IMG/VR virus record: IMGVR_UViG_3300019373_000295
Source of the DNA: an uncultured virus (IMG/VR IMGVR_UViG_3300019373_000295)
Taxonomy: Duplodnaviria > Heunggongvirae > Uroviricota > Caudoviricetes
Reading direction: 5' to 3' (one strand)
DNA: 64,000 nt
The position numbers were made by a program, and so were the translations under genes. Below the pieces are notes generated by a model, which was not told the DNA's origin, ran no database searches, and saw only the letters and a list, made by a program, of their open reading frames with translations. Positions within the stretch are counted from its first letter, which is position 1; every line of letters starts with the position of its first letter. Of the stretch, positions 29,704 through 50,555 are shown in pieces.

Positions 29704-30176
29704 CAGCCACCTCCGAGAAGTTCATCCATATCGTCAACAGCGGCGTTTTTCATATCCGCACCTGCCGTGATTCTGCTTCTTGCCGCCGGAGTCAGACCGA
29801 ACTGCTCTGCGATCTTATTCATAATTTTCAGATAAGTCTGTGCAATGGATACTTGGGGAACTTGCTGCCAGTAGCCGGACTTCGTTTTCACGATAGTGCC
29901 GTGCTGTGTCATAAATTCCTCGGCTTCTTTCCAACGGGCGTATGCCTGACAGTACGATGCGAATGCCGCCTGATCGACCTCGGTCAGCACGCCGATCTGT
30001 TCCAGTTGTTTCGATAGCCTGCGCCATTCCTTTTTCGCTTCGGGCTCCAGCCACTTCGGACAAGGCGGCGCTTTGCGTTCCGGCTTCGGCTCTGCATCAT
30101 TCAGCGGACGCTTGCCCGGATTGCCTTCCAGTTCCTTGATCGCTGTCGGTGTCGGTTTTCTGCCTCTCTGAGCCAT
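29703..30176 (-). CDS. terS: Terminase small subunit (P27 family)
   Basis: GRKPTPT..LEGNPGKRPL..FGLTPAAR. Confidence 0.93.
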   Translation of the reverse strand: MAQRGRKPTPTAIKELEGNPGKRPLNDAEPKPERKAPPCPKWLEPEAKKEWRRLSKQLEQIGVLTEVDQAAFASYCQAYARWKEAEEFMTQHGTIVKTKSGYWQQVPQVSIAQTYLKIMNKIAEQFGLTPAARSRITAGADMKNAAVDDMDELLGGG

Positions 30177-30213
30177 CCGCATCACTCCTTCCTCAAAAAA
30201 TCTGCATAAAGAA

Positions 30214-30236
30214 AAGGCCTGCAAAACTGCAAGCCT
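30214..30236 (-). terminator. Terminator closing the small-gene array before terS
   Basis: AGGCTTGCAG-tttt-GCAGGCCT then TTTCTTT on minus strand. Confidence 0.6.
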
Positions 30237-30260
30237 CTCCTATGTATGAAACCACCATGT

Positions 30261-30524
30261 TTACTTGTTCAACGCATCAAGCATGATCGCCGCACCGTTC
30301 CGAAATCCTTTTGTGTAGCTGTCCTCGGAAGAAATTGCTTCCATCTGGTGGTGAATATCCACCAGTTCCTCCAGGTCTTTCGCCGCATCTTCGGACAACT
30401 GCTTTTTCAACGACTCGAAAAGCTGCTCGGCATGCTTACTCAATGCATCGAACTCAGCGGCATTGACCGTGATTTCGGTCGGTGCGCTGATTTTTCCACG
30501 ATAAATATCGCTGATTGCTCCCAT
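30261..30524 (-). CDS. Hypothetical protein (DUF6809-like)
   Basis: ISDIYRG.I..Y.KGFR.GA.IM; GGAGGTG RBS. Confidence 0.7.
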   Translation of the reverse strand: MGAISDIYRGKISAPTEITVNAAEFDALSKHAEQLFESLKKQLSEDAAKDLEELVDIHHQMEAISSEDSYTKGFRNGAAIMLDALNK

Positions 30525-30594
30525 GTTTTCACCTCCCTTCGCAGCGGAGGAAAGAGCAGAGGGCAGCCCTTTGGCTGCCGTGCCCGTATGCTGC

Positions 30595-30819
30595 TCAGTT
30601 GAACTTTTTCAGGAGCATCTCAAGTACTGCCTTGGTGTCTCTATCTGCCGCCTTGATGTCCATCCCACGGTCGTAGTTGAAAACTGTTCTGCCGCCCCGC
30701 TCGATCCAAATCTTTGAGGCTCTGCCCTCGTTGTATCCGAATTCGCTGGGTTCCTCAAAATGCTTGACTGCGTATCTGTACGCCTTTCCGTTGTAGGTGA
30801 TGGTATCCTGAGTCCACAT
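30595..30819 (-). CDS. Small phage protein
   Basis: KHFEEPSEFG..EGR.SK..NYDRG.D; GGAGG RBS. Confidence 0.75.
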   Translation of the reverse strand: MWTQDTITYNGKAYRYAVKHFEEPSEFGYNEGRASKIWIERGGRTVFNYDRGMDIKAADRDTKAVLEMLLKKFN

Positions 30820-30874
30820 AGTGTTTTCCTCCGCTTTTCTTGTTTTCGGCTCGGTTTCCCTTGCCTTTGTACAC

Positions 30875-30903
30875 ATATTACCATAGATTCCTAGATATAT
30901 CAA
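30875..30903 (-). promoter_or_regulatory. Array promoter P1
   Basis: TTGATA-17bp-TAATAT, extended TG. Confidence 0.8.
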
Positions 30904-30953
30904 GCGGCTATACCAACATAATGTGTGGGGCAATTTTTTTCGATTATTGTACA

Positions 30954-31334
30954 TTACCACCATTCAAAATATACAATTTCATCGGTTTGAAAATCGGTCT
31001 CGATGAGTATCTCTTCGAGCTGTTCAATCGCTTTTTTTAGGGTATCAAAGTAAATATCATTGTACTCAACAGCACCGAAAAAATATCCGCCTCCGGTCGG
31101 CAGTAGCCTATGAGCAAGCATATTGTCTTCCTGCACCGCTCTGCAGTCGGCAAGAAGTTCTTCAAGCTGATCCTTTGTCAATTTGTAGACTGAACAGTTG
31201 GAATCTGCATCGTACCCCGTGTGATCTACAATCCACTTGCGCACTTGATTTGCCTTGCGGAGATATAGTACCTCTGTGTCAGGCAGTTCAGTCTCACCTT
31301 GCAGTCTGCGATACATGTACATATCCAATCCCAT
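30954..31334 (-). CDS. Phage hypothetical protein (MGLDMY family), AT-rich
   Basis: MGLDMY..YLRKANQ..FFG..Y; RBS GGAAGGA. Confidence 0.75.
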   Translation of the reverse strand: MGLDMYMYRRLQGETELPDTEVLYLRKANQVRKWIVDHTGYDADSNCSVYKLTKDQLEELLADCRAVQEDNMLAHRLLPTGGGYFFGAVEYNDIYFDTLKKAIEQLEEILIETDFQTDEIVYFEWW

Positions 31335-31400
31335 TTTTGTTTCTTCCTTCCATAAGCTTTTTCTTAAACGTGATAAATTACGATTTAAAAATGAGTCAGA

Positions 31401-31481
31401 ACGCGCCGTGTGGGCGGTTTTCTGCGTGGGGCAAGTTATCCGCAGAAAAGCCGTTAGCCCCCACACGAGCGAATGTGGTGC
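31401..31481. repeat. Palindromic intergenic element, copy a (outer arm truncated)
   Basis: GTGTGGGC..GCAAGTTATCCGC..CCCCACAC..GCGAATGTGG. Confidence 0.75.
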
Positions 31482-31484
31482 AAA

Positions 31485-31694
31485 TCAGGGCTTGCTGTTC
31501 CTGCCCAGTTCGTATGCACGCTCCAGCATCCGGCTGACCTCCCGCAGGCTGATACCGGGGAAATTATGCTCAGCGTTGGTATCATCGTAGGGATCATCCT
31601 TTTCACCGTAGGGTGTCAGACCACCGGCAAATCGGATGCCGTAGGATTCCTCTATTGCAATCTGCTCCAGAGCTTTTCTCGTTTCGTTATCCAT
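31485..31694 (-). CDS. Small hypothetical protein resembling the C-terminus of 33762-34127
   Basis: AGGAG RBS; MLERAYELGR vs ALKDAYEAGR. Confidence 0.65.
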   Translation of the reverse strand: MDNETRKALEQIAIEESYGIRFAGGLTPYGEKDDPYDDTNAEHNFPGISLREVSRMLERAYELGRNSKP

Positions 31695-31745
31695 GTATGC
31701 GCTCCTTTCGGGATGCCGCCCCTCCGAAGAAGGGCGGCTCTTTTT

Positions 31746-32108
31746 TCAGTCGGCGAAGTTCTCAAGGTAGTCGGTGATCGCTTTTGCAATCTTGTTGTAG
31801 TCCGCTGCTGTGGGGTTGTAATTGTACCATTCGCTCTCCCCGCGGTAAGTCCATGCGTGAATCGTGTCTTTGCCTGCCCAGTGGTCGCTGAAGCGGATGA
31901 CGATCTCGTCGATCTTGCCCTCGTTGCGGTTCAGGATCGTGATTCGAATCGCAGGGTAGTTTTCTGCAACCCCAAGTGTTGTGAAGGCTGCCTTCACCGT
32001 CGTGGTTTCCGTCAGGCGGGCAATGCAGGCTCTGCCGACCAACTTGGGGTTCTTCAGCAGGCTGACCTTTGCGGTCATTTTCTTCAGTTCGGTTTCAAAA
32101 AAGTTCAT
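31746..32108 (-). CDS. Hypothetical protein
   Basis: 120 aa ORF, GGAGG RBS, own promoter and downstream hairpin 31715-31738. Confidence 0.75.
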   Translation of the reverse strand: MNFFETELKKMTAKVSLLKNPKLVGRACIARLTETTTVKAAFTTLGVAENYPAIRITILNRNEGKIDEIVIRFSDHWAGKDTIHAWTYRGESEWYNYNPTAADYNKIAKAITDYLENFAD

Positions 32109-32161
32109 GGTGTTTTCCTCCGTTTTGTGTATTCGGTGCGGTTTCCCGTTCCGTTGTACAC

Positions 32162-32190
32162 ATAGTAACTCTTTTCGCTCGATATATCAA
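32162..32190 (-). promoter_or_regulatory. Array promoter P2
   Basis: TTGATA-17bp-TACTAT. Confidence 0.8.
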
Positions 32191-32258
32191 GATGGTAAAA
32201 CAACAGATCAGAAAAGGCGTATTTTCACAGGAATTGTACATATTATGCCTTGCTCACA

Positions 32259-32352
32259 AACGCGCACAGTTGCGCCGTGTGGGGCTTGCAGCGCCGGGGC
32301 ATCCGTATACGTTTCTCCCTGCATCCCCGCCACAGGGCGGCGCTGTGCCGCC
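32259..32352. repeat. Palindromic intergenic element, copy b
   Basis: ACGCGCACA..GCGCCGTGTGGGGC..CCGCCACAG..CGCTGTGC. Confidence 0.65.
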
Positions 32353-32369
32353 CCGGTGGGGCGACCGGC

Positions 32370-32714
32370 TCATCTGCCGGTCATCCATTCCCATTCGCTT
32401 TCGCAGGCGTCTGCGTACTCTGCCTCGAAAAGGGCGTCGTCATCGATCCATTCGGTTTCGTAGTCGATTTCCTCGATGCCCTCGAAGGTCGTGCCGTTTG
32501 CAGCGGCGTCTTCCTGTGCAAGGCTGTCGGCGTTCTCCTCGACCCATGCTCTGAAGTCCTCTGCGTTAAGGTCGTCTTCGTTCTCGACCTCCAGTTCGTA
32601 GCCTTCCTCCTCGGTGTCGTACCAAAGGATCGTGGCGCTTCTGATTGCCTCGCGTGCGTTCCAGTCATCTCTTCCTGCCATTGCTCTTGCCTTTGCCAAT
32701 CCGTAGCTGATCAT
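32370..32714 (-). CDS. Extremely acidic 114-aa protein
   Basis: About 35 D/E against about 7 K/R by hand count; GGAGG RBS. Confidence 0.8.
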   Translation of the reverse strand: MISYGLAKARAMAGRDDWNAREAIRSATILWYDTEEEGYELEVENEDDLNAEDFRAWVEENADSLAQEDAAANGTTFEGIEEIDYETEWIDDDALFEAEYADACESEWEWMTGR

Positions 32715-32769
32715 TGTTTTTTCCTCCGCTTTTCGTTGTTTCGGTGGGCTTTGCCCTTCCGTTGTGTAC

Positions 32770-32798
32770 ATAGTAACTCTTTTAGCAAAATTTATCAA
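32770..32798 (-). promoter_or_regulatory. Array promoter P3
   Basis: TTGATA-17bp-TACTAT. Confidence 0.8.
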
Positions 32799-32922
32799 GC
32801 GGCTAAATGTACAGAAGAAAAACGGCGAATTTCCGCAGGAATTGTACATATTATGACGGGCAAAAAATGCACCGGAAACTGATACGGAGATGGGGCAGAA
32901 CCGCAGCTCTGCCCCTGTTGCT

Positions 32923-33276
32923 TTACTCTACGATGTGGAGTACCACCATGCCGTTGGGTGTCGGGATGAAGATCTCAGGCTCCCAGAAAAGTGCCTTGTA
33001 CTTTTCAGCCTGTTCATCGGTCAGCCCGGTAAAATCCTCGACCCCGAGTCCGCAGACGAAGAAGGTGCCTTTGATCGGACCGTATTTTTCGACTGTCCTG
33101 TTCCATTGCAGTCCCTCAATGAAAAGGCCCTCCTCGTTGCACACTACTGCGACCTCCTCCTCGAAGGGGTACAGCGCCTGAATGTATCCGCCGACCTCTT
33201 TCTGCAGGTTCTCCAGCGTGTGTTCGATCTCCTTGACGTAGGGGTGCTTGCCGGGTTCGCATACCAGAATTTTCAT
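32923..33276 (-). CDS. DUF3846-like protein
   Basis: EPGK.P...EI..TLENLQKEVGGYIQ..VCNEEG..NR..I.GTFFVCG. Confidence 0.82.
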   Translation of the reverse strand: MKILVCEPGKHPYVKEIEHTLENLQKEVGGYIQALYPFEEEVAVVCNEEGLFIEGLQWNRTVEKYGPIKGTFFVCGLGVEDFTGLTDEQAEKYKALFWEPEIFIPTPNGMVVLHIVE

Positions 33277-33323
33277 GTAGATTCGCTCCTTTGTTTTGAT
33301 TCCGCTTCGCTTGCGGTATGCAC

Positions 33324-33352
33324 ATATTACCGCCTTTTCGAGGAAAAGTCCA
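33324..33352 (-). promoter_or_regulatory. Array promoter P4
   Basis: TGGACT-17bp-TAATAT. Confidence 0.7.
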
Positions 33353-33420
33353 CGCCTTTCCGCAAAATAAATGTGACAAACATGAGCCGATTATTCAGGC
33401 GGAATTGTACATCGCACAGA

Positions 33421-33520
33421 ACGCGCACAAACGCGCTGTGTGGGGCGGTTTTCCGCAGGGGCAAGTTATCCGCTGCCGCCATGAAAAGCCCCACACAAGC
33501 GAACGTGGCTCAGGTGTGCG
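33421..33520. repeat. Palindromic intergenic element, copy c
   Basis: ACGCGCACAAACGCGCTGTGTGGGGC..GCCCCACACA..GAACGTGG..GTGTGCG. Confidence 0.8.
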
Positions 33521-33523
33521 TGA

Positions 33524-33700
33524 TCAGCCGTATTCTTTCAGGTAAGAATTCACCCGGTCGCCGTATCCCATCTCGGTAAGCTCCTGCGGTTCAAAAACCT
33601 CCAGAAGCGTTTCCATCACGTCACGCTCCGTCCATGCTCCGCTCTCGGGCAGATTGGCGATGACTGCCGTCAGCATTTCAAGCTGTGTGTATGTATCCAT
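33524..33700 (-). CDS. Small acidic hypothetical protein
   Basis: 58 aa, GGAGG RBS. Confidence 0.65.
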   Translation of the reverse strand: MDTYTQLEMLTAVIANLPESGAWTERDVMETLLEVFEPQELTEMGYGDRVNSYLKEYG

Positions 33701-33761
33701 GTTTTTCCTCCTGTTCGGCATGCGCCCTTCCGTATTTCAGGAAGGGCAGCGCCGGTTTTTT

Positions 33762-34127
33762 TTACTTGCTCTTGCGTCCTGCCTCGTAGGCGTCCTTGAG
33801 GGCGGCTTCCAGTCCCCAGACCGGAATCTCGATGAAGTCCTCGCTGTCGCAGTGGCGGGCTTCAAGGTCTCCGCGCTCCTGCACTGTGACCATGTGCTTG
33901 GCTGCGATTTCAAAGAGCTTCTTGTCAATGCCCGTCAGCGGATGCTCGGCTCTGAAGATCTCCTGCTCGGTCTTGGCGAGGGCTGCGTTGGTGTTCGCAA
34001 GTGCCTGCGCCCGGCTGATTCCGAAAAGCTCAAGGCAGTCTGCTTCGGTCATTCCCTCAAGGGCTGCCTTGCCGTTCTGCAGCATCTTCAGCTTGTCAAC
34101 TGCGGCTTTCATTTCCTTCTTTGTCAT
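33762..34127 (-). CDS. Hypothetical protein with DUF6900-like C-terminus
   Basis: GDLEARHCDSEDFIEIPVWGLEAALKDAYEAG. Confidence 0.75.
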   Translation of the reverse strand: MTKKEMKAAVDKLKMLQNGKAALEGMTEADCLELFGISRAQALANTNAALAKTEQEIFRAEHPLTGIDKKLFEIAAKHMVTVQERGDLEARHCDSEDFIEIPVWGLEAALKDAYEAGRKSK

Positions 34128-34184
34128 GGTGGTGTACCTCCGTTTTTTGTTTTCGGCGGGCTGTCTGCCCTTCCGTTGTGTCAC

Positions 34185-34213
34185 ATATTACCATGATCTC
34201 TCCCGGAATGCAA
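34185..34213 (-). promoter_or_regulatory. Array promoter P5
   Basis: TTGCAT-17bp-TAATAT, extended TG. Confidence 0.8.
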
Positions 34214-34303
34214 GCGGCTAAATGTACAGAACAAAATCGGCGTATTTTCGCAGGAATTGTTCACATGACACTATGTACGGGAACAGCCCCGAAGGGCTGA
34301 AGA

Positions 34304-34687
34304 TCAGCCCTCGGTCGGCGGGATCCATGCCCCCTTTTTCTCATCGAAAAGGTAGTAGTAAGGGATGCCCCAGTAATCGCTCATCAGGGAAACAATGCTC
34401 TTGTGGGTGACTGCCGGGCTCATCGGCTCTTTGCGGTCTCGGTGGTAGGCTACCGTCACGCCCTCGGCAGGTTTCTCAAAGCTGTGCGGCTCATCGGCAT
34501 CTGGTGCGATGCGTTCGCCGAGGCTGCTGATGTCTCCGAGCGCAAGCAGCGCCCGTACCTTTTCGGCGGTGTCGTAGTGCCCGGTGAGGATCGGCATCTG
34601 ATGCTCGGGGTAGCCGTCCCAGTGGCAGTAGATCGTTTCCGTTGTCTCGTCCTCGTGCAGGATCCCGATTCTTGAATTCGTGCTCAT
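34304..34687 (-). CDS. Phage hypothetical protein (YCHWDGYP family)
   Basis: MSTNSRIG..IYCHWDGYP..AYHRDR.E. Confidence 0.8.
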   Translation of the reverse strand: MSTNSRIGILHEDETTETIYCHWDGYPEHQMPILTGHYDTAEKVRALLALGDISSLGERIAPDADEPHSFEKPAEGVTVAYHRDRKEPMSPAVTHKSIVSLMSDYWGIPYYYLFDEKKGAWIPPTEG

Positions 34688-34742
34688 GTATTTTTCCTCC
34701 GTTTTCGTTATTCGGTCGGCTCTCTGCCTTCCGTTGTGTCAC

Positions 34743-34771
34743 ATATTACCGTCTTATGCAAAATAAATCAA
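34743..34771 (-). promoter_or_regulatory. Array promoter P6
   Basis: TTGATT-17bp-TAATAT. Confidence 0.8.
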
Positions 34772-34871
34772 GCGGCTGAATGTACAGATCATTTCGGGCG
34801 TATCTGCGCGGTTTCTTGTACATAATGCTTCACAGGGAACAGCCCCCGAAGGGGCTGTATCCGATCGCGGT

Positions 34872-35306
34872 TTATCCGAAAAGGTCTGCGCCGAACATCT
34901 CTGCGTTCATTCTGCGCTGTGCCATCAGGAAAGCACCGCCGTAGCTCTTGCAGTGCTTTTCGTAGCCGTCCGCATCCATTTCCCTGAGAAGGTCATCCGG
35001 AAATTCATAAAGCGGGTAGCGGCAGAATCCGCTGTATCCGTAGACCGGCTCTCCGAAGCGTTCGTACTGCTTTGCGCCGATGCTCTGCAGGAATTCCTCC
35101 GCGGTCGGATTGTTGTTGGTGTCGATGAAGGCGCAGTTGCGCGGGATCAGCGTACCGTTCCCGATGCTGCTGCCGATGTTGACCGAAAGCACCACATCGA
35201 ACTCGTCAGCCTCTGCGGTCGCGGTGATCGCCATGACCATCGGGTCGGAAGCGTAATCTGCGATGCGGAAGCGCACCCTGAATCCGTTCATGTTGTAGTC
35301 TGCCAT
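34872..35306 (-). CDS. DUF4313-like protein
   Basis: LSVNI..AFIDTNNNP.AEEFL..SGFCRYPLYEF. Confidence 0.75.
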   Translation of the reverse strand: MADYNMNGFRVRFRIADYASDPMVMAITATAEADEFDVVLSVNIGSSIGNGTLIPRNCAFIDTNNNPTAEEFLQSIGAKQYERFGEPVYGYSGFCRYPLYEFPDDLLREMDADGYEKHCKSYGGAFLMAQRRMNAEMFGADLFG

Positions 35307-35358
35307 TTTCGTATCCTCCAAAAGAATGTAATTCCGAGGTTTTCCCTTCGGTAGCGAC

Positions 35359-35387
35359 ATTATAACTCTGTTTCCGCATAATAGCAA
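35359..35387 (-). promoter_or_regulatory. Array promoter P7
   Basis: TTGCTA-17bp-TATAAT. Confidence 0.8.
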
Positions 35388-35485
35388 CCCGATAAATGTA
35401 CAGATCATATCGGGCTTATCTTCGCGGTTTATTGTACACATAATCATTTCGGAAGGCAGCCCCCGGAGGGGCTGCGCCGGTTCCG

Positions 35486-35980
35486 TCAGACCTTCAGTTC
35501 AGCTTCGGTCATCAGCCTGAAGTTTTTGTCCTGCCAGAAGGAAATGTAAACATCGTAGCGTACATCCCATTCGCTTTCGTAGTATTCGTCTGCTTCCTCA
35601 TCGTATTCCTCACTGGTCTCGGTCTCCGTGTAGCTGTAAACTTCTCTCTGTTCAAAGCCCTCGCCCCAGCCGTCGCTGTACTGTCCGCTGAGGTATTCCT
35701 TCAGCTGTGCGGTGTCTTCGTCTGTCCAGTCATCGTCCACCTCGCAGGTTGCCAGTCCGTAAAGCCGTTTGCCGTACCACTCGGCGCTCATCGTGACCTT
35801 GTGCAGTTTCTTGTAGTAGGTTGCACCGTGGTAGTCGTCGGCGTAATCGGCAAGGTCGGTATCGTCGTTCTCGAGCGCCTCGAACAGCTCTGCGGCGTAC
35901 TCCTCGGCGGGTGCGGTGAAGCAGTTGCTCTCGCTTGCGATCTGGGCGATTAGCGGATTGTAGATCTTCAGGGTTTTCAT
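35486..35980 (-). CDS. Highly acidic Tyr-rich 164-aa protein
   Basis: About 41 D/E by hand count; LKEYLSGQYSDGWGEGFEQ motif. Confidence 0.8.
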   Translation of the reverse strand: MKTLKIYNPLIAQIASESNCFTAPAEEYAAELFEALENDDTDLADYADDYHGATYYKKLHKVTMSAEWYGKRLYGLATCEVDDDWTDEDTAQLKEYLSGQYSDGWGEGFEQREVYSYTETETSEEYDEEADEYYESEWDVRYDVYISFWQDKNFRLMTEAELKV

Positions 35981-36037
35981 GGTGGTTTCCTCCGTGTTCT
36001 GTATTTCGGCGGGCTTTCCGCCCTTCCGTTGTGTCAC

Positions 36038-36066
36038 ATATTACCGCCTTTTGCCTGAAAAGTCCA
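36038..36066 (-). promoter_or_regulatory. Array promoter P8
   Basis: TGGACT-17bp-TAATAT; near-identical to P4. Confidence 0.7.
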
Positions 36067-36144
36067 CGCCTATGTGCAAAATAAAACGTAGAAGAATCGC
36101 CGTTATCAGCGGTATGAACAGGTACATATACACAAGCCGCCGGA

Positions 36145-36233
36145 ACGCGCACAAACGCGCCGTGTCGCGACCGGAATCCGCCCAACAAACAAGCGGCGCA
36201 GAGCCGTAAAGCCCCACACCGCCCGCTGTGCGC
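36145..36233. repeat. Palindromic intergenic element, copy d
   Basis: ACGCGCACAAACGCGCCGTGT..GCCCCACAC..CTGTGCGC. Confidence 0.75.
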
Positions 36234-36236
36234 CCC

Positions 36237-36440
36237 TTATTCGGGAATGTACTTGTCGTGGATGATTCCGAGGATCTTGTCCTGCTCCTCGATGCTGATG
36301 CCCATCGTTTCGAGGGCTTCCCGTGTTCCGCAGTCGGGGCAGATGAGCGTGTTGTTGTCGCTGCGGGAAAGGGCCGGGCGCTCGGTGTAGGTGCGTCCGC
36401 ATTTCGGACATGTGCGTGCTTCGGTTACTCGTTCTTTCAT
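36237..36440 (-). CDS. Small zinc-finger protein
   Basis: CPKCG..PALSR.DN...ICPDCG.REAL. Confidence 0.8.
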   Translation of the reverse strand: MKERVTEARTCPKCGRTYTERPALSRSDNNTLICPDCGTREALETMGISIEEQDKILGIIHDKYIPE

Positions 36441-36490
36441 TTGGATTCCTCCTATGTAGTTGTGGTGTGCCGCCCGAAGGCGGCGGTTGG

Positions 36491-36754
36491 TCATTCATCG
36501 ATTCGCTCTGTGTGGCTGAGGATCTCTTCGGCGCTGCCGGATTCTGCGTATCCGCAGTCCCAGATCGCGAGGAGCATCTCCTCTTCGGTTTCGGGAACCT
36601 TGATGCTGTAGGTAATCTTCCTTGCTCCGATGTCGTTCAGCATCTTGGTGGTGGTTTCGAGGAAGTCGGCGGGGATTTCTCTGGTCGTGCCGTCCTTTGC
36701 AATCAGGCGTACTCCGTGGCGGCGCAGGCTTTCAATATGTTCTTTGCTTGTCAT
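36491..36754 (-). CDS. Hypothetical protein
   Basis: 87 aa, AGGAG RBS, own promoter. Confidence 0.65.
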   Translation of the reverse strand: MTSKEHIESLRRHGVRLIAKDGTTREIPADFLETTTKMLNDIGARKITYSIKVPETEEEMLLAIWDCGYAESGSAEEILSHTERIDE

Positions 36755-36794
36755 GTTCAGGACTCCTTTGCGATGTTTTCCTTTCGGTAGTGAC

Positions 36795-36823
36795 ATATTA
36801 ACTCTTTACTCGAAAAATAGCAA
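36795..36823 (-). promoter_or_regulatory. Array promoter P9
   Basis: TTGCTA-17bp-TAATAT. Confidence 0.8.
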
Positions 36824-36884
36824 CCCGGTAAATGTACAGATCATTCAGGGCGATTCTGCACGGTTTGTTGTTCATTTTATGCTT

Positions 36885-36998
36885 TGCACACGTTTGCGCC
36901 GTGTCGCGTTGTGTGGCGCGGTTGACTGAGGTGGGATACCGAATCGGAGGATACCCCTTCCGCCCCACACGGGGCAACGTGGGCGCTGTGTGTGCGCC
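36885..36998. repeat. Palindromic intergenic element, copy e
   Basis: GCACAC..TGTGTGGCGCGG..CCGCCCCACACG..CAACGTGG..GTGTGC. Confidence 0.7.
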
Positions 36999-37038
36999 CG
37001 TGCCGTTCCGCTTGTTCCTGCGCCCCGAAGGGCAGGCC

Positions 37039-37983
37039 TTAAGGTCTGCCGAATCGGAAGGCTGCGTTGCCCGTCAGGTTTTCGGTAAGGGTCTCTCTGG
37101 CTGTTGCGAACTCGTCGCCAATGAAGCCCATTCTCATCAGCCAGGTTCTCATTGCGAAAACCTTGTTTTCTTTCTGCTGTTCCTTGGGGCTTGCACTTCT
37201 GAGGTCCTTTGCCATCTGGCTCATTGCGAGGCAAAGCTGAATGTAGCTCTTGAGCTTGCCTGCGTGGAGGCCGTTCTGCTTGCCGTTCGCGGGCGGTGCA
37301 AATTGGAAAAGTCTGAACTCGACCGTGCCCTTTGTAAAGGTGGCGTGCAGGTTGAGCATGTGGTAGCGGCTGTCGTTGTAGTGGTGGGTTCTGCCGTAGG
37401 TGCATCCCTGTGCGCCGTACCAGATGTCTGCAAGCTGTGCCATCGTGCGGGGCTTTTTGCGGTTGAGCTGGTCGAGGAATCTCGGGTCGACCGTTCTGCA
37501 GTAGCGGTTCATTCTGCTGTGGTCTACCTTGATTGCTTCGGCAATCAGGGTTTCGTGGCTCGCCATGATGTTTGCGAGGTTTCTGAGGCTTTGCGGTGTG
37601 TGCCCCTGCGCTCCGATGTGAATGTGAACTCCGCATCCTCTTGTGTAGTCGCTCTTTGCGCCTGCCTTGCGAAGGCGTCTGATCAGCTCCTGCAGGGTTT
37701 CGATGTCTGCGTAGTGCAGGATCGGTGTGACCAGTTCGCACTTTTCGCTGTCCGGACCGCTGATGCTGCAGTCGCGCTGGAACTTCCACTCTCTGCCCTG
37801 TGCGTCCCAGGCGCTGTAGGTTTCGTAGCCGTTGCGGCTGCCTGTGTACTCGCTGCGGTTTGTGCCGAAGAACTCGGCGGCAAGCTTTGCGGCAGCCTTG
37901 CGGGTGATGTTGTTCATCTCAACCTCGACCCCAATGGTCTGCTCCTTCATTCTGTTGATCTGCTGTGCGGTTTTCTCAGTCAT
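37039..37983 (-). CDS. Amidoligase family protein (COOH-NH2 ligase, glutamine-synthetase-like fold)
   Basis: IGVEVEM, D.SI, CELVTP, CGVHIHIG, RY..LN, TVEFR motifs. Confidence 0.9.
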   Translation of the reverse strand: MTEKTAQQINRMKEQTIGVEVEMNNITRKAAAKLAAEFFGTNRSEYTGSRNGYETYSAWDAQGREWKFQRDCSISGPDSEKCELVTPILHYADIETLQELIRRLRKAGAKSDYTRGCGVHIHIGAQGHTPQSLRNLANIMASHETLIAEAIKVDHSRMNRYCRTVDPRFLDQLNRKKPRTMAQLADIWYGAQGCTYGRTHHYNDSRYHMLNLHATFTKGTVEFRLFQFAPPANGKQNGLHAGKLKSYIQLCLAMSQMAKDLRSASPKEQQKENKVFAMRTWLMRMGFIGDEFATARETLTENLTGNAAFRFGRP

Positions 37984-38037
37984 TTTTGTATCCTCCGTTT
38001 CGGTTTTCGGAAGGCTGTGTGCCTTTCGTTGTGTCAC

Positions 38038-38066
38038 ATATTACCGTCTTTGGGAGGAAATAGCAA
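38038..38066 (-). promoter_or_regulatory. Array promoter P10
   Basis: TTGCTA-17bp-TAATAT. Confidence 0.8.
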
Positions 38067-38258
38067 GCCGCTAAATGTACAGATCATTCGAGTGTATTTT
38101 TCCCGAATCTCTGGTGATTTTACATACTTAAAAGACTTGCATTTTTATGGTATACTTGGGTACGATGGAATAGGATCTCTCATTTTCGGGACCCCCGAGG
38201 TGGTATATAATCAGCGGTCGGAAGGCAGGGACACAGCCCTGCCAATCAGCCGCTTTTC

Positions 38259-38729
38259 TTATCGGTACAGATGCCTTGTGCTTCGCTCGTAGGCTTCGTA
38301 GAGAAATTCGGGATCGAAGCCGAATGAACGGTAGCCGAGCACGCAAGTCCAGAAATATCTTGGTGTCGGTTCGCCGAGTCTGCGTTTCTCCTGCATGATG
38401 TACACAAAGCTGTTCGTCTGCACCGTTCTTCCGCTTTTTGTTCTGCGCACCGGGAGGCTGATCTCTTTCTTATAGTAGCAAACCGGGCAGCCCTCGTAGC
38501 GGTCGAGCATTCGCTCGTGCTCCGCAGTGACCTCCCAGACTGCGACCGGAACAACACCGTCTGCCTTCGGCTCGATGGTCAGGTAAAATCCGGTCTTGCT
38601 GCCTTTGAACAGCAGCTCGTAGCCTTCCAGCAGTGCAGTCCCGACCACTTTTGCGCCTGGGCATCGCATCTGCATCTGCTTGCGGTTCAGATTGCTTCCG
38701 TATGCGAGGTAGTATCTCTTTTTGCTCAT
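38259..38729 (-). CDS. Gamma-glutamylcyclotransferase family protein
   Basis: YLAYGSNL..RCP..LDRYEG. Confidence 0.9.
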   Translation of the reverse strand: MSKKRYYLAYGSNLNRKQMQMRCPGAKVVGTALLEGYELLFKGSKTGFYLTIEPKADGVVPVAVWEVTAEHERMLDRYEGCPVCYYKKEISLPVRRTKSGRTVQTNSFVYIMQEKRRLGEPTPRYFWTCVLGYRSFGFDPEFLYEAYERSTRHLYR

Positions 38730-38780
38730 GTTATCGTCCTCCGTTCGGGTATTTGGCGGCATCCGCCTCCGTTGTGTCAC

Positions 38781-38809
38781 ATATTACCATACCCTTCGGA
38801 GCTTATCAA
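38781..38809 (-). promoter_or_regulatory. Array promoter P11
   Basis: TTGATA-17bp-TAATAT, extended TG. Confidence 0.8.
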
Positions 38810-38879
38810 GCGGGTGAATGTACAGATCATAATGCCTGTTTTTCGCTGATTGTTGTACAAATTATGCCTTGCCGTAAAT

Positions 38880-38980
38880 CGCGCAAAAACGCGCCGTGTG
38901 GGGCAGAAACCGAAACGGAGTAACTGTCGGAGGAAACCCTGCAAAGCCCCACACGGACGAACTTGGGCGGTCTGTGCGCG
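38880..38980. repeat. Palindromic intergenic element, copy f
   Basis: CGCGCA..ACGCGCCGTGTGGGGC..GCCCCACACGG..GAACTTGG..TGTGCGCG. Confidence 0.8.
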
Positions 38981-38981
38981 T

Positions 38982-39398
38982 TCAGCGGACCGTCAGGGAT
39001 TCCTTCCGTGCCTGTTCCAGAACTGCGGTGTCCAGCCCGTTCATTTCGTAGCCCTTGCGGATCACATCGTAATAAAAGGGGCTGGGCGGTGCGATGCCTT
39101 TGCTGTTCATGATGTAGACCATCGCATCGACTGTCTTGCCGTTCAGCTCGACCTGCACGGTCTCTCTGCGGTACAGCTGCGGGTAGCCTTCGTATCGGTC
39201 AAGCGGGATCTCATCGGCGGGCTTAATATCCCAGAGCAGAACGGGAACGCTGCTATCGGGATCGGGCTCAATGGTCGCCACGCCGTTGAACACCAGACGG
39301 TAGCCGTGAAGCGTACTCGTTCCGAGTACTTCCGCTGTGCGGCAGCGGAACTGCATCTGCCCGATATGAAGATTCGAGCCGTATGCTAAGTAGATCAT
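38982..39398 (-). CDS. Gamma-glutamylcyclotransferase family protein
   Basis: YLAYGSNL..LDRYEGYP..MVYIM. Confidence 0.9.
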   Translation of the reverse strand: MIYLAYGSNLHIGQMQFRCRTAEVLGTSTLHGYRLVFNGVATIEPDPDSSVPVLLWDIKPADEIPLDRYEGYPQLYRRETVQVELNGKTVDAMVYIMNSKGIAPPSPFYYDVIRKGYEMNGLDTAVLEQARKESLTVR

Positions 39399-39634
39399 GT
39401 TTTTTCTGCCTCCTTTATAATGGTGAAACTGTCTGCGCCTTCGATCAGTGAAAGCGTCCTGCCATTCTCCCAGACCATGTGGATGTTGCCGGCATCATCA
39501 ACGTGCTGAACCTCGCCGACTGTTCCGTCCGGAATCGGTGCATACGGGTCATCCATATGATTCAGGCGGATCTTTGTGCCTGCCGGGTAACGCTCACGCA
39601 GCGCCTGAAGCTGTCTTTCATTCGGAAACTTCAT
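39395..39634 (-). CDS. DUF4314-like protein
   Basis: LRERYPAGT.I.L..MDDP..GTVG.V..VDDAG.IH..W.NG..L.L. Confidence 0.85.
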   Translation of the reverse strand: MKFPNERQLQALRERYPAGTKIRLNHMDDPYAPIPDGTVGEVQHVDDAGNIHMVWENGRTLSLIEGADSFTIIKEAEKT

Positions 39635-40523
39635 CGTTTTCTTCCTCCTCGTTATTCTGAGCATCACGCTTTGCCTTCTGCTTTGCTTCCCAGCGCTCAC
39701 GCTCCGCATCGTTGCGGAATGCAGTATGGCCGGAAAGGTTCTCCAGCAGGCGCTTGCGGTCTGCCTTGCAGTCCTTTCCGTTCAGCCCGAGGCGGATCAG
39801 CCAGACGCGGAGTGAGTATTTCTCGTTGCTGTCATCGACATCCTTTGCCTGCACACGCTGCTGCGTCAGTGCCATATTGTTCATTGCTCCGGCAAGCTTC
39901 ATGAAGGTCTGCACATGGTCAGCATCTGCCGCCTGACCGAATCCGTCAAAGGTGAGTTTGTCGCTGTCAAAGGAGATGCCGGTCAGCGGCGGATTCGTTT
40001 CATCCCACTCTCTGATAAAGGCGATCAGTTCGTGGGCGCTGCGGAATTCGTGCTTGCCGATCTCATCAGCAAGGCTCTTGTCTGCGGAGAAGTTTCCGCC
40101 GGTTGCCTTGCTGATCAGCGGACCGCGGGAATGAATCATGCAGATGAGGTTTGTAAGGCTCTGCACCGTGTGGTCGGAAAGCGGAAAGCTGATGCTTGCA
40201 TCCAGCGGAAATCCGCTATTCGGTTCCGGCTCTGCATTGGTTTCCTCCGGCTCATCTGCTTCTGCTGCATCCGTTCCATCCGGCGGTGTGACTGTTTCGC
40301 TGGTGTAGCCCGCTTCTGCAAGTCCGTCCAGCACCTTCTCCACGATCTCGGTGTCGCTGCGGTCGCTGAAGCTGAGAACTGCATCCTTGCTCAGTGTGAA
40401 GATGTCAATCTCGTAAGCGCAGCTCGGAACGCCGAGGTATACTGCCTCTGCTCCGGTCAGCTCTGCGATTTTCTGTGCCAGTGCCTTACGCTGGCTCTTT
40501 TCGATATTGTACTTGATTTCCAT
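39618..40523 (-). CDS. Degenerate amidoligase paralogue (often called virulence-related protein)
   Basis: C-terminus NEKYSLRVWLIRLGL.G..RKRLLENLSGHTAFR matches amidoligase C-terminus; catalytic motifs absent. Confidence 0.75.
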   Translation of the reverse strand: MEIKYNIEKSQRKALAQKIAELTGAEAVYLGVPSCAYEIDIFTLSKDAVLSFSDRSDTEIVEKVLDGLAEAGYTSETVTPPDGTDAAEADEPEETNAEPEPNSGFPLDASISFPLSDHTVQSLTNLICMIHSRGPLISKATGGNFSADKSLADEIGKHEFRSAHELIAFIREWDETNPPLTGISFDSDKLTFDGFGQAADADHVQTFMKLAGAMNNMALTQQRVQAKDVDDSNEKYSLRVWLIRLGLNGKDCKADRKRLLENLSGHTAFRNDAERERWEAKQKAKRDAQNNEEEENDEVSE

Positions 40524-40593
40524 ATTAAAACCTCCGTTTTCATCACCGCCCCTTGCGCCCTGTGCGCTTGTGCTGCGGCGTTTTCGTAGTCAC

Positions 40594-40622
40594 ATATTAC
40601 CGTCTTTTTCCCCGGAATGCAA
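40594..40622 (-). promoter_or_regulatory. Array promoter P12
   Basis: TTGCAT-17bp-TAATAT. Confidence 0.8.
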
Positions 40623-40699
40623 GACTGTAAAACGGAGAATGTACAGGGAAGATATCCGCTTGTATTTGTGCATATCACGGATACCTTCCGAAGAACTGC

Positions 40700-42883
40700 T
40701 TACTTAGTATCAGTCTGTTCACAATTTGCTGCATGGGGCTTAGAATTCTGCGCCGCCCATGCGATGCCGGAAAGCACGAAATAAGTGCAAGGCAGAGCCA
40801 CGCCGTTGCCCCACAGCTTGTACTCTGCGGAATCGGTGTACGGGTCAGCCAGCCATTTTCGGATCTGCTTTTCCGTTTTCGGTTTTCCCTTGGGATTGGT
40901 GACCTGCCGCCATGTTTCCCAGACCTCAGACCAGAATGCAATATCCGCATCGGTCGGTTCGAGAATCGCAAGGTCGGCGCACCACCAGTCCGGGAATCCC
41001 TGCAAGCGGGCGCACTCCACCGGAGTCAGGCGGCGGACGATATACACCGGCTCGTCATTCGGAAGGTCGTTCACAAGCGGAGGATCCTTCCAGTCGGATG
41101 CGACCAGCGTATTAGCCTGTTCATGCGCCGCAACCGTATGGTGTGAATTCTTGCTTGTGCAATAATGGTCTGCCGGTGCTGCAACCGTTGCAGGTCCTCT
41201 CGCAACTGCCGTGACGGATACATCTTCCGAAACGGCGAAATGATTGTCGCGGGATATTGTGAAGGACGGTTCCGGCGCAGCGACTGCGTGTCGGTCTGTC
41301 GTATTCAGCGTAAAACACACATCCTCGTTGATGCCGTCACCCTGCGGACCGTTTTCATCAGCGCGTCCGATCATCGAGCCTTGCAGCGAATATGTCTCCG
41401 GAGCCACAACGGCAATGCCACCGTGATTGCTGTCCGGGTTTGCCTCGCTTGTATCAAGGCATCGGGAGATCTCCGTCGTATAACAATGCCCACGAGCATT
41501 TTTCGTGCCGTCCGATGTAAAACGCACATCAAAAGTCTCCGGCGCAGGTGCTACCACGCAGATGCCGCCCTGATTGGATGTCACAGAATTGCCGCCGCTC
41601 TGATCGAGCGTCCTGCTTGTGGTCGCTTCATAGAATCCGCTGTGCGGATTATCCGACATCATCGCATTGGAATGCTTGCTGCATACACCGAAAGCTTTGA
41701 CTTCCGGCTGAAAAAGCGTCTGATCGTTGTGTGTTCCGAGTGTCGCGGACATATCCCTCTGCCAGAGTGCGCCCTTTCCGCCCCCCTCGCAGCCTGACCT
41801 GATTTTCAGCGTAACGGGTTCTGCCACAAGCGGTACATTGTTGCCGCCCGTGCCGGCTCTGCTGCAAAGCGTCTGACAGGTGTCATCTTCACGGATCTTC
41901 ACCCGACCGTCTGTCGGATGATTCTCCACGGAGAGTGCTGCCGGAACGACACCGGCTCTCAGTGTGGGAGATACCTCTTCCTCATAGCCGATGCTCCTGG
42001 CTTTTGCACTGTGTTCCGTGGAAAAGCCTGCTGCAAGAACGGCGGGATGATTGCCGTGATCCTGTGCGACCAGTGCGAGCGCCTTGTCCTCTGTGATACC
42101 GACACCGGAAGTACCCTGACAGTTTACGCAGAGGGTTCCACCTCCAGTGTCAGACCGCCCGCCTGTCTCTCCAGCGCCTTCTTCAGCACCTCCGGCAGCT
42201 CCTTGCCACGCACGGAAGCCCTGCGGAGTATACCCAGACACGCCTTCGGACTTAAATAATACTTCTCCGGCACTTCCGCCAGCAAGATCTGCGACAAGGT
42301 AGATTCTTGCCCTTCGCTGGGGCACACCCCAGTATTGAGCGTCGAAAACTCGGTAAGCCACGCTCCATCCGTCTCCCAGATATACGTCTGATTTTGGCCA
42401 TCGGTGATTTTCAGGCGAAGGCACCTCGATCCCTTCTTCTTTAATTCCGATAACTGCTTCGAGGACAGCTTTGAAATCGTCTCCTCCGTGGGAGGAGAAG
42501 GCGCCGGGAACATTCTCCCAGACGCAGTATCGCGGATATCGTCCATTTGTTGCATCCCTCATTTCTTTGATGATACGGATCGCCTGAAAGAACAGGTTTG
42601 ACCGGTCACCGTCATGGATTCCGGCACGTTTGCCGGCGATCGACAGATCCTGACACGGACTGCCGAAGGTAATGATATCCACCGGCGGCAGCTCTGCGCC
42701 GCTGAGTCTGGATACATCACCGTAATGCTTCACGCCCGGAAGCCGCTTGTGGGTAACAAGCACCGGGAACGGTTCAATTTCACTGCTCCACTTCGGCTCG
42801 ATCCCTGCGAGGATGCCGCCAAGCGGAAAGCCCCCGGAGCCGTCAAACAGACTGCCGAGGGTCATTTTTGTATTATCCATCAT
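40700..42883 (-). CDS. DNA (cytosine-5) methyltransferase with very long variable region
   Basis: SLFDGSGG, GSPCQDLS, ENVPG, PQRRARIY, RRLTPVECARLQGFPD, YKLWGNGV. Confidence 0.93.
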   Translation of the reverse strand: MMDNTKMTLGSLFDGSGGFPLGGILAGIEPKWSSEIEPFPVLVTHKRLPGVKHYGDVSRLSGAELPPVDIITFGSPCQDLSIAGKRAGIHDGDRSNLFFQAIRIIKEMRDATNGRYPRYCVWENVPGAFSSHGGDDFKAVLEAVIGIKEEGIEVPSPENHRWPKSDVYLGDGWSVAYRVFDAQYWGVPQRRARIYLVADLAGGSAGEVLFKSEGVSGYTPQGFRAWQGAAGGAEEGAGETGGRSDTGGGTLCVNCQGTSGVGITEDKALALVAQDHGNHPAVLAAGFSTEHSAKARSIGYEEEVSPTLRAGVVPAALSVENHPTDGRVKIREDDTCQTLCSRAGTGGNNVPLVAEPVTLKIRSGCEGGGKGALWQRDMSATLGTHNDQTLFQPEVKAFGVCSKHSNAMMSDNPHSGFYEATTSRTLDQSGGNSVTSNQGGICVVAPAPETFDVRFTSDGTKNARGHCYTTEISRCLDTSEANPDSNHGGIAVVAPETYSLQGSMIGRADENGPQGDGINEDVCFTLNTTDRHAVAAPEPSFTISRDNHFAVSEDVSVTAVARGPATVAAPADHYCTSKNSHHTVAAHEQANTLVASDWKDPPLVNDLPNDEPVYIVRRLTPVECARLQGFPDWWCADLAILEPTDADIAFWSEVWETWRQVTNPKGKPKTEKQIRKWLADPYTDSAEYKLWGNGVALPCTYFVLSGIAWAAQNSKPHAANCEQTDTK
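42124..42555 (-). CDS. Out-of-frame ORF nested in the C5 methyltransferase (candidate beta-type subunit)
   Basis: 143 codons open in a second frame; protein-like TLSQILL.EVPEKYYLSPKACLGILRRA..RGKELPEVL. Confidence 0.6.
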   Translation of the reverse strand: MQQMDDIRDTASGRMFPAPSPPTEETISKLSSKQLSELKKKGSRCLRLKITDGQNQTYIWETDGAWLTEFSTLNTGVCPSEGQESTLSQILLAEVPEKYYLSPKACLGILRRASVRGKELPEVLKKALERQAGGLTLEVEPSA

Positions 42884-43088
42884 CCGCCTCCTTTGCGTTC
42901 CTGCACAGGGCAAGAAAATCTTCTCGTATTTGTTCCTTGTAGGCTTCAGCAACCGCAGGGATCTCGTGTGAATACACCGGTCTGCCGATGAAACCGGAGA
43001 GATAATTGTACAGATATTTCAAGTCGCTGCCCTTCAGCATTGCGAACCCTGTGTATGCTGTCACGATGGCGCATTCATGTTTTGTCAT
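42873..43088 (-). CDS. Small phage protein
   Basis: Overlaps neighbouring genes; ECAIVTAYTG..GRPVYSHE. Confidence 0.75.
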   Translation of the reverse strand: MTKHECAIVTAYTGFAMLKGSDLKYLYNYLSGFIGRPVYSHEIPAVAEAYKEQIREDFLALCRNAKEADDG

Positions 43089-45116: not shown

Positions 45117-45117
45117 C

Positions 45118-45417
45118 TCATTCCTCCCGTATATACATCTGCCGCAGCTCTGCGGCTCTTTTTGCGTTCGCATCCTTCAGTACCGTGACCTCACGGAGCG
45201 TTTCTTCACTCAGCAGCTTGCCCTTCAGCTTTTCGGCAAGCGTGCGGTATTTGCGGATACTCCGGCGGAGAGCGGCATCGGTCACAGACACGATATACGC
45301 CTTGCCGCAGTAGTCGCAGTTGAAGAAGCTGTATTCGATCTCGCCCTCACGCTGCGTTTTCGGCTCCGGCACAAAGGCACAGCCGCAGGCATCGCAGCGG
45401 ACATTCTGTTTTGTCAT
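45118..45417 (-). CDS. Small zinc-ribbon protein
   Basis: CDAC..CDYC. Confidence 0.7.
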   Translation of the reverse strand: MTKQNVRCDACGCAFVPEPKTQREGEIEYSFFNCDYCGKAYIVSVTDAALRRSIRKYRTLAEKLKGKLLSEETLREVTVLKDANAKRAAELRQMYIREE

Positions 45418-50554: not shown

Positions 50555-50555
50555 T

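Follow-up and report, generated by a model that had tools for sequence, protein, structure and literature searches.

Twelve Promoter-Leader Modules Head the Units of a Gene Array

The 64-kb stretch of DNA analyzed here (the window), corresponding to positions 1-63797 of a 95.7-kb provirus record of an uncultured Caudoviricetes virus (IMG/VR IMGVR_UViG_3300019373_000295), carries an array of 12 units between a C5 DNA methyltransferase gene and terS. Each unit contains one to three genes and stands behind one copy of a homologous promoter-leader module. Judging from its architecture and from its variation among relatives, the array is probably an accessory-gene locus of 12 autonomous expression units, which resembles the promoter-early stem-loop (PeSL) cassettes of T4-type phages and the morons of temperate phages, and in which the modules would serve as homology for exchange.

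The module is approximately 190 nt long and comprises one or more TGTACA boxes, a -35 element (T[TG]GNNN), a 17-bp spacer, a -10 element (TANNAT), a start block, a leader hairpin, and a GGAGG ribosome-binding site (RBS). An earlier interpretation of the letters alone (the sequence-only reading) had listed 12 promoters by coordinate, and these positions proved to be the low-coordinate ends of minus-strand -10 hexamers. The invariant 17-bp spacer that it described is present in all 12 modules, as is a G at -14. The -35 hexamers are TTGATA (four modules), TTGCTA (three), TTGCAT and TGGACT (two each), and TTGATT (one), and the -10 hexamers are TAATAT (nine), TACTAT (two), and TATAAT (one). The conserved start region noticed previously was recovered as TAATATGTGACACAACGG, found five times with at most one mismatch (0.02 expected), with variants in the other seven modules. 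The proposed GGAGG-type RBS was likewise found, as GGAGG in 10 modules and as AGGAG in two, and the distance from the -10 box to the ATG is 41-71 nt. The strict pattern T[TG]GNNN-N15-G-N-TANNAT matches 17 times on both strands of the window, 12 of the matches being array modules and five lying elsewhere. An nhmmer profile of the module core gave 12 matches in the window (E 1e-16 to 1e-25); over the whole 95.7-kb record it also found 12 copies, each of them within the array and on the gene strand, with the next match at E 0.3.

In the order of transcription on the minus strand, module 1 (40524..40676; TTGCAT, -10 box TAATAT ending at 40594) precedes the gene for an amidoligase-like protein, module 2 (38730..38863; TTGATA-17-TAATAT, -10 ending at 38781) a cyclotransferase gene, GGACT-b, and module 3 (37984..38115; TTGCTA-17-TAATAT, -10 ending at 38038) the Amidoligase_2 gene. 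Module 4 (36755..36878; TTGCTA-17-TAATAT, -10 ending at 36795) heads the gene for an 87-aa protein, and module 5 (35981..36114; TGGACT-17-TAATAT, -10 ending at 36038) that for a 164-aa protein; the latter module is chimeric, with the TGGACT subtype in its upstream half and the GTGACACAACGG subtype in its downstream half. The genes for DUF4313, phrog_1987, and DUF6900 proteins follow behind module 6 (35307..35441; TTGCTA-17-TATAAT, -10 ending at 35359), module 7 (34688..34824; TTGATT-17-TAATAT, -10 ending at 34743), and module 8 (34128..34267; TTGCAT-17-TAATAT, -10 ending at 34185), respectively. Module 9 (33277..33413; TGGACT-17-TAATAT, -10 ending at 33324) stands before the DUF3846 gene, module 10 (32715..32852; TTGATA-17-TACTAT, -10 ending at 32770) before a gene for a 114-aa protein, and module 11 (32109..32244; TTGATA-17-TACTAT, -10 ending at 32162) before one for a 120-aa protein. 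Module 12 (30820..30954; TTGATA-17-TAATAT, -10 ending at 30875), before the DUF7678 gene, is the predicted promoter closest to terS.

The units had been described as ending in a hairpin or a large palindrome, and a GC-rich hairpin or long palindrome indeed precedes 11 of the 12 modules. Since these elements adjoin the module, the punctuation mark of the array is a composite of stem-loop, promoter, leader, and Shine-Dalgarno (SD) sequence. Six sites carry an imperfect GC palindrome of approximately 95 nt, GTGTGGGGC ... GCCCCACAC, with a small GCGCG hairpin behind it. Its minus-strand copies lie just upstream of module 2 (38878..38973) and upstream of modules 4 (36895..36988), 5 (36144..36238), 9 (33420..33515), and 11 (32259..32349), and a sixth copy (31395..31485) lies between the genes for the 69-aa and phrog_7971 proteins, where no module follows. 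A short GC hairpin is found on the same strand after DUF3846 (32892..32915), and similar hairpins without T-tracts follow GGACT-b (~38224-38243), the 164-aa gene (~35456-35475), DUF4313 (~34840-34857), and the phrog_1987 gene (~34284-34299). A profile search with the palindrome found six copies in the record, all within the array and in a single orientation. The 21 related arrays have one to eight copies each, mostly ending 7-50 nt before a module, and there too the family is restricted to the array and to one orientation. In Rfam, the whole window had no match at the gathering score, and a search with 29500-41000 at E 1 was equally negative. The palindrome may act in transcription termination, 3'-end stabilization, or protein binding. 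The phrog_7971 gene (segment 30954-31400) is the sole array gene preceded by a separate gap, of approximately 150 nt and behind a palindrome, in which there is neither a module nor a module-type GGAGG.

Conservation of the Module Core

For conservation analysis, 196 modules were collected from 22 non-redundant arrays, namely the window and 21 related loci, after L016, L034, L075, L015, L025, and L048 had been dropped as repeating the cassette map of another array. T[TG]GNNN-17-TANNAT occurs in 176 of these modules, 170 of which also have the G at -14. In a profile alignment of the 171 distinct modules made without any motif anchor, the T and G of the -35 TTG were conserved at 1.00, G-14 at 0.96, T-12 at 0.99, A-11 at 1.00, and T-7 at 0.99. 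The best-conserved columns are thus the sigma-70 contact positions; the 17-bp spacer is nearly uninformative, and whole modules are only ~67% alike. We interpret this pattern as the footprint of a housekeeping-sigma promoter and the modules accordingly as predicted promoters. The window also contains canonical TTGACA-17-TATAAT promoters outside the array, at +8432 and -2069, which suggests a host with the usual consensus. Among 122 distinct leaders, the hairpin has a mean minimum free energy of -9.15 kcal/mol and a mean z of -2.2, and the hairpins consist of short GC stems with purine-rich loops.

Variation of Cassettes Among Related Phages

An exact 18-mer of the module core was found in 98 IMG/VR stretches and also in 11 stretches of metagenome-assembled genomes of rumen Ruminococcus, Oscillospiraceae, and Clostridia, plus three assigned elsewhere. 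Three clear modules are present in the published Ruminococcus phage PV036433.1 (L110), and weaker ones in the Evtepia phage PV036427.1 (L116). Several small "hypothetical protein" coding sequences (CDSs) of these published genomes overlie modules, namely 9081-9182, 10168-10302, and 12181-12780 in the former and 12127-12225 in the latter. Such module-overlying small CDSs of the published NatCom phage genomes are probably not genes; for CDS 12181-12780, which contains a module, the true start is likely the ATG behind a GGAGG near 12375.

Related arrays have 4-14 modules and invariably lie between a large DNA methyltransferase gene and terS. Their common order begins with the amidoligase-like gene and a GGACT gene, a second GGACT gene, Amidoligase_2, the 87-aa and zinc-ribbon genes, and the 164-aa gene or c9. 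It continues with DUF4313, phrog_1987, DUF6900 with the 58-aa gene, and DUF3846, and ends with the 114-aa gene, the 120-aa and 69-aa genes, DUF7678 with DUF6809, and terS. Within this frame, cassettes have been gained, lost, replaced, and in a few cases transposed. For example, the 114-aa gene adjoins terS in L011 and L023 and is fourth in L080, and the 164-aa gene follows DUF4313 in L011 and L040. Rough open reading frame (ORF) calls gave 34 multi-member clusters of cargo genes and 18 singletons across the arrays.

Relatives therefore differ in gene content between the methyltransferase and terS, and the breakpoints lie within the repeats or next to them, as the sequence-only reading had anticipated; fixed content and order are not what we found. 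Its term "shuffleable" is appropriate in the sense of gain, loss, replacement, and a few transpositions; it does not extend to free permutation, because the order is largely colinear. Gene adjacency was kept in 394 of 1157 comparisons at module junctions (0.34) vs. 664 of 1266 at module-less junctions (0.52); these comparisons are non-independent and left out paralogue-merged clusters and singletons.

Breakpoints were further located by the ends of blastn high-scoring segment pairs (HSPs) between the window and the 21 relatives. Module plus leader, with 17.7% of the bases, received 98 of the 251 ends in the array, other intergenic DNA (14.8%) received 97, and the interiors of CDSs (67.5%) received 56, so that the ends are ~2.2-fold over-represented in module plus leader.

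Individual modules show where such exchanges occurred. The leader of the 164-aa gene is constant, and the upstream half of its module varies with the left neighbor. Preceded by the zinc-ribbon gene, the module has the TGGACT upstream half (the window, L059, L022, and L081; likewise L058, after an unclustered singleton ORF). Preceded by DUF4313, it has a TGTACA/TTGCTA half (L011 and L040; likewise L023, after an unclustered ORF), which is orthologous to the half following DUF4313 in the window. The upstream half of the phrog_1987 module likewise varies with the preceding gene. These chimeric modules show crossovers within the repeat, at points from the -35 element to the leader. In most of 17 arrays, and behind nine different left neighbors, the upstream half of the DUF7678 module is retained in full, and the breaks sit at the distal edge of the module. 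Averaged over all pairs, the upstream part of the module tracks the upstream neighbor slightly better, and core and leader track the downstream gene.

Contigs from other public sequencing runs contain further joints in the same positions. One of them (34726>36022) passes through 25 shared core letters and removes the 164-aa and DUF4313 cassettes. Another (30875>31400, with 106 other letters between) replaces the phrog_7971 segment, its ends being the -10 box of module 12 and the palindrome edge. A third joint, which goes back (36101>34769), reproduces the cassette order of L011 and L040; a mini-circle was considered for it and rejected in favor of this alternative order. These joints are natural variants of relatives rather than proof of ongoing excision.

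Interpretation of the Array

In the mechanism that we propose, host RNA polymerase would start at every module and the hairpins would attenuate read-through, leaving each cassette with its own expression signals at whatever site it enters. The modules, which are ~67% identical and have identical blocks of 18-25 nt around -10/+1, would provide portable homology by which general recombination, between phages or between modules, could delete, add, replace, and occasionally reorder cassettes.

Several observations weigh against this interpretation. On the side of expression, high conservation extends to columns outside the sigma contacts (A at about -41, 0.97; the start block ACACAAC, 0.94-0.98), for which a plain promoter does not account; moreover, an exact TGTACA is missing from 44 of the 176 distinct modules. 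A hand-drawn leader stem pairs 556 of 809 cells, compared to 212-302 when the 3' partner is slid, and this reflects conservation with almost no compensatory changes; RNAalifold found no consensus structure for the 122 leaders. Termination at the unit ends is uncertain, since their hairpins lack T-tracts. Of the 16 RNA-labeled public runs found to contain the sequence, the four compared (X1, X7, X12, and X16) are assembled contigs that also cover terL/portal and the methyltransferases, and no transcript start, end, or level is visible in them. On the side of exchange, cassette order is broadly colinear across relatives, and the HSP ends at modules are in part to be expected, given the mutual similarity of all modules. 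Junctions without a module (87-aa|zinc-ribbon, DUF6900|58-aa, and DUF7678|DUF6809) are broken as well, so that the modules are preferred, not exclusive, exchange points. Finally, modules are as similar within a genome (0.676, 847 pairs) as non-orthologous modules are between genomes (0.674, 15707 pairs). We therefore rejected concerted evolution of the modules within a genome, there being no sign of homogenization; exchange between paralogous modules must be rare and the module family old.

The strongest alternative, which we consider possible though clearly the less likely, is that the modules form a factor-dependent regulon, in which a DNA-binding protein of the phage or the host switches all 12 units together. 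It overlaps with the cassette interpretation and differs from it solely in the control of initiation. The factor could be a protein that recognizes the TGTACA boxes or a 246-aa phage protein with a sigma-70 region-4 domain (62721-61981), and it could act by repression in the lysogen, by activation once the prophage is induced, or through sensitivity to methylation by the three adjacent methyltransferases. The TGTACA boxes highlighted in the sequence-only reading are in fact enriched (34 in the window vs. 9.3 expected), with 20 of the 34 within 30240-40690. They also occupy fixed positions, at -50 in 69, at -86 in 42, and at -5 in 19 of the 176 distinct modules, and the near-invariant A at about -41 points in the same direction. 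The region-4 protein, whose C-terminus matches sigma-70 region 4, is kept (48-86% identity) in all four complete array-bearing IMG/VR records, one of which has a second, 30% copy. In addition, twelve unrepressed strong promoters would presumably be costly to a prophage. However, a quarter of the modules dispense with an exact TGTACA, as noted above, and the 62722-63512 gap by the helix-turn-helix (HTH) and region-4 genes contains no TGTACA. The region-4 protein lacks a recognizable region 2, no family matches the ~150 aa at its N-terminus, and it was not found in PV036433.1, which nonetheless has modules. The module core itself fits the housekeeping consensus, like the canonical promoters at +8432 and -2069. 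As a separate observation, TGTACA is a palindrome and could be a methylation target.

The junction with terS raises a further alternative. The array had been thought to interrupt the late operon; this is not the case, as it lies upstream of that operon, with a conserved intrinsic terminator standing between it and terS. This terminator (30206..30241, minus strand), a 14-bp GC stem followed by TTTTCTTTAT, lies ~25 nt before the terS RBS. It was found in 18 of 19 arrays examined, L037, L011, and L035 among them, with compensatory changes in the stem; in L059, the 140 nt examined at the site stop short of terS. No promoter fits between the terminator and terS, and late transcription must therefore pass the terminator or use a promoter of an unrecognized type. 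The terminator turns late-gene control in this lineage into a testable question, and the lack of room for a promoter behind it led us to consider antitermination. The start block and leader hairpin would then be a signal of the nut/qut/put kind, and the array promoters, or at least the last of them, would double as late promoters; with a phage factor, polymerase from any module would become terminator-resistant and would pass both the cassette hairpins and the terminator before terS. As in lambda-type antitermination, a terminator stands between promoter and late operon. The conserved initial-transcribed ACACAAC and the short GC stems and purine-rich loops of the leader hairpins are compatible with such a signal, and the DUF7678 module retains its upstream half whatever precedes it, as would be expected of a conserved late-control unit. 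We nevertheless regard this explanation as improbable: a Pfam scan of 24 upstream ORFs, where proteins without an assigned family remain, revealed no N, Q, or other antiterminator family, the array has no Rfam match even at E 1, hairpin covariation is weak, and the late promoter may be of an unrecognized type or lie further upstream. A combined form, in which the cassettes would be insulated and autonomous in the lysogen and become entry points into the late operon after induction, with the loading sites acting as exchange homology, appears to us just as doubtful.

With respect to exchange, the repeats might instead be a passive by-product of serial tandem duplication of a promoter-gene unit followed by replacement of the cargo. 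They would still be promoters, would have no special role in recombination, and mosaic boundaries would fall between genes as in most phages. The breaks at module-less junctions, the lack of homogenization within genomes, and the 97 of 251 HSP ends in other intergenic DNA are in line with this proposal. It seems unlikely to us, though, given the crossovers between -35 element and leader in chimeric modules, the deletion joint through 25 shared core letters, the lower retention of adjacency across module junctions (0.34 vs. 0.52), and the ~2.2-fold excess of HSP ends in module plus leader. A dedicated integron-like site-specific system, or one resembling miniature inverted-repeat transposable elements (MITE-like), with palindromes or modules as recombination sites, is highly improbable despite the superficial attC resemblance of the ~95-nt imperfect palindromes at the 3' ends of six units: in contrast to integron cassettes, each unit possesses a promoter, the joints lie in plain identity stretches at varying positions with no fixed nucleotide, modules and palindromes are restricted to one locus and one orientation, and the array contains no recombinase gene (IntI was not searched for elsewhere in the record).

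Cargo Genes of the Array

We counted 19 genes with an RBS, rather than the approximately 18 small genes proposed before, and their division into 12 units stands. The cargo is mostly unrelated, as had been claimed, with the exception of two paralogue pairs (two amidoligases and two GGACT proteins) and a weak DUF6900 pair. All the genes listed below are on the minus strand.

The first three cassettes contain the two amidoligase paralogues, the two GGACT/AIG2-like cyclotransferases, and a DUF4314 protein. The first amidoligase-like protein (301 aa, 39618..40523) belongs to phrog_2443 and has no Pfam match; it is followed by the DUF4314 protein (79 aa, 39395..39634) and the GGACT/AIG2-like gamma-glutamyl cyclotransferase a (138 aa, 38982..39398). 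Cyclotransferase b (156 aa, 38259..38729) weakly matches human GGCT (E 2e-4), and the second amidoligase is an Amidoligase_2 protein (PF12224, 314 aa, 37039..37983), for which a PDB sequence search gave no match. The same set is found elsewhere, at 68-73% nucleotide identity in gut-Clostridia phages (12 of 29 matching records listed). Two amidoligases and a cyclotransferase are also listed for Clostridium clostridioforme prophages (PMC11318856). The literature on these genes describes them without a promoter-module array, and their function there is a prediction. An Amidoligase_2 and AIG2/GGACT neighborhood in Firmicutes phages was reportedly noted by Iyer et al. in 2009.

The next unit (36237..36754) encodes the 87-aa protein (36754-36491), without an assigned family, and a zinc-ribbon protein of 67 aa (36440-36237; phrog_2945). 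The 164-aa protein (35486..35980) also has no assigned family, and it is followed by the DUF4313 protein (144 aa, 34872..35306) and the phrog_1987 protein (127 aa, 34304..34687), which is present in 18 of the 22 arrays. Searches of the ESM Atlas with the phrog_1987 and 164-aa proteins returned nothing but unnamed viral clusters. Unit 33524..34127 holds the DUF6900 gene (34127-33762) and the gene for a 58-aa protein without an assigned family (33700-33524), and the DUF3846 protein (117 aa, 32923..33276) and the 114-aa protein (32370..32714, no assigned family) form the two units that follow. Unit 30954..32108 contains genes for the 120-aa protein (32108-31746, no assigned family), the 69-aa protein (31694-31485), and the phrog_7971 protein (31334-30954). 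The conserved terS-proximal unit (30261..30819) consists of DUF7678 (30819-30595) and DUF6809 (30524-30261).

Among these proteins, DUF3846 provides the sole functional hint of anti-defence, by association: in 117 longer relatives it is fused to ArdA (antirestriction), YodL, LPD18, or DUF4316, which puts at least this cassette with the "polyvalent protein" domains that invading DNA carries. More generally, host or competitor factors are the probable targets of the cargo, as suggested by the amidoligase/GGACT peptide-modification pair and the domains of polyvalent and ArdA proteins. None of the 19 cargo proteins matches the PADLOC library, which consists of defence models and not of anti-defence models. 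NCBIfam gave no match for eight of nine cargo proteins tried and four weak matches, all under the curated cut-offs, for the zinc ribbon. A search of the literature on the DUF names of the cargo found nothing relevant.

Comparison with Known Systems

PeSL cassettes were defined in T4-type myoviruses (Arbiol et al., 2010, PMC2839356) and described further by Comeau et al. (2014, PMC4122927). The PeSL analogy drawn in the sequence-only reading applies to architecture and evolution and does not extend to lineage or sequence homology. Both systems have a repeated composite of stem-loop, strong sigma-70-like promoter (predicted in the array), SD sequence, and start codon, a hyperplastic region whose small genes are dispensable and mostly without known function, and indels or replacements between relatives that end in the repeats. 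In contrast to the lytic T4-type myoviruses, the host of the array is a temperate siphovirus-like prophage of Gram-positive anaerobes, and it has a single such locus instead of many hyperplastic regions. Its modules are without sequence homology to PeSLs, are much longer (~190 nt), and are conserved beyond the hexamers in boxes, start block, and leader hairpin. The terminator-like hairpin of the array is a separate element upstream of the promoter rather than overlapping with it, and in six cases it belongs to the ~95-nt palindrome family.

The morons of temperate phages are genes flanked by their own promoter and terminator, a concept said to go back to Juhala, Hendrix, and colleagues in 2000. 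Each array unit is similarly an insert of promoter, gene or genes, and hairpin, which lies ahead of the packaging genes and between the core modules of the prophage, and would have the corresponding activities; by its predicted architecture, the array is a tandem series of morons. Unlike morons, its twelve tandem units have one homologous promoter-leader module in common. Another related case is the host-takeover module of Bacillus phage SPO1, which reportedly (Stewart and coworkers in 1998) has ~24 small genes in ~12 operons with strong early sigma-A promoters and RBSs. Like the array, it combines dense housekeeping-type promoters and strong RBSs with many small genes in ~10 kb. However, the SPO1 module belongs to the terminal redundancy of a lytic myovirus, and its promoters are not extended homologous modules; we know of no report of cassette exchange there. 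Integron cassettes are promoterless, are served by a common Pc, end in attC, and are moved by IntI, whereas each array unit has its own promoter and only six units end in a palindrome.

A literature search on repeated promoters, morons, and shuffling found no description of such an array, the PeSL papers being the only relevant ones among those listed, and the main Heliusvirales paper contains no occurrence of promoter, intergenic, accessory, or amidoligase. We conclude that the array is an undescribed variant, ordinary in principle, of a known type of system. It would extend PeSL-type evolution by mobile regulatory cassettes from lytic Gram-negative T4-type myoviruses to temperate phages of rumen and gut Clostridia, including the widespread "Ca. 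Heliusvirales" lineage and published genomes within it. In these phages, the array marks a site for the storage and exchange of accessory genes, possibly including counter-defence genes. For work on genetically intractable anaerobes, it also offers one promoter-leader-RBS part in approximately 170 natural versions.

Genomic Setting and Neighboring Genes

All genes in the array region are on the minus strand, and the array is flanked by the C5 DNA methyltransferase (42883-40700, 727 aa) and terS (30182-29703). In the sense of transcription, the gene order starts with an HTH gene and the gene of the 246-aa region-4 protein and continues with a replication block (PD-(D/E)XK, SSB, PolA, SNF2, a PemK/MazF-like ORF, and primase). 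MetK, HNH, NrdD/NrdG, and three DNA methyltransferases follow, then the cassette array, and downstream of it terS, terL, portal, and structural genes. The terS/terL/portal set is of the Clostridia/Streptococcus siphovirus type, and the nearest terL proteins (74% identity) are from human-gut "Ca. Heliusvirales" phages. The phage that carries the array is temperate and siphovirus-like, a prophage of Ruminococcus/Oscillospiraceae from the rumen.

The methyltransferases directly upstream of the array (43085-45173 and 40700-42883) are a ParB-fused N6/N4 enzyme, a second N6/N4 enzyme, and the 727-aa C5 enzyme, and a phage S-adenosylmethionine synthetase, MetK, is encoded further upstream at 49460-50623. 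The 246-aa protein (61981-62721, minus strand) has a C-terminal sigma-70 region-4 HTH, and its N-terminal ~150 aa contain cysteines. The PemK/MazF-like toxin-domain ORF of the replication module (188 aa, 53500-54066, minus strand) overlaps the end of the primase gene, and the Evtepia phage relative has a "MazF-like growth inhibitor" annotated at the matching position. The prophage also encodes an anaerobic ribonucleotide reductase, NrdD, with its activase NrdG (45414-48019), which fits a strictly anaerobic host.

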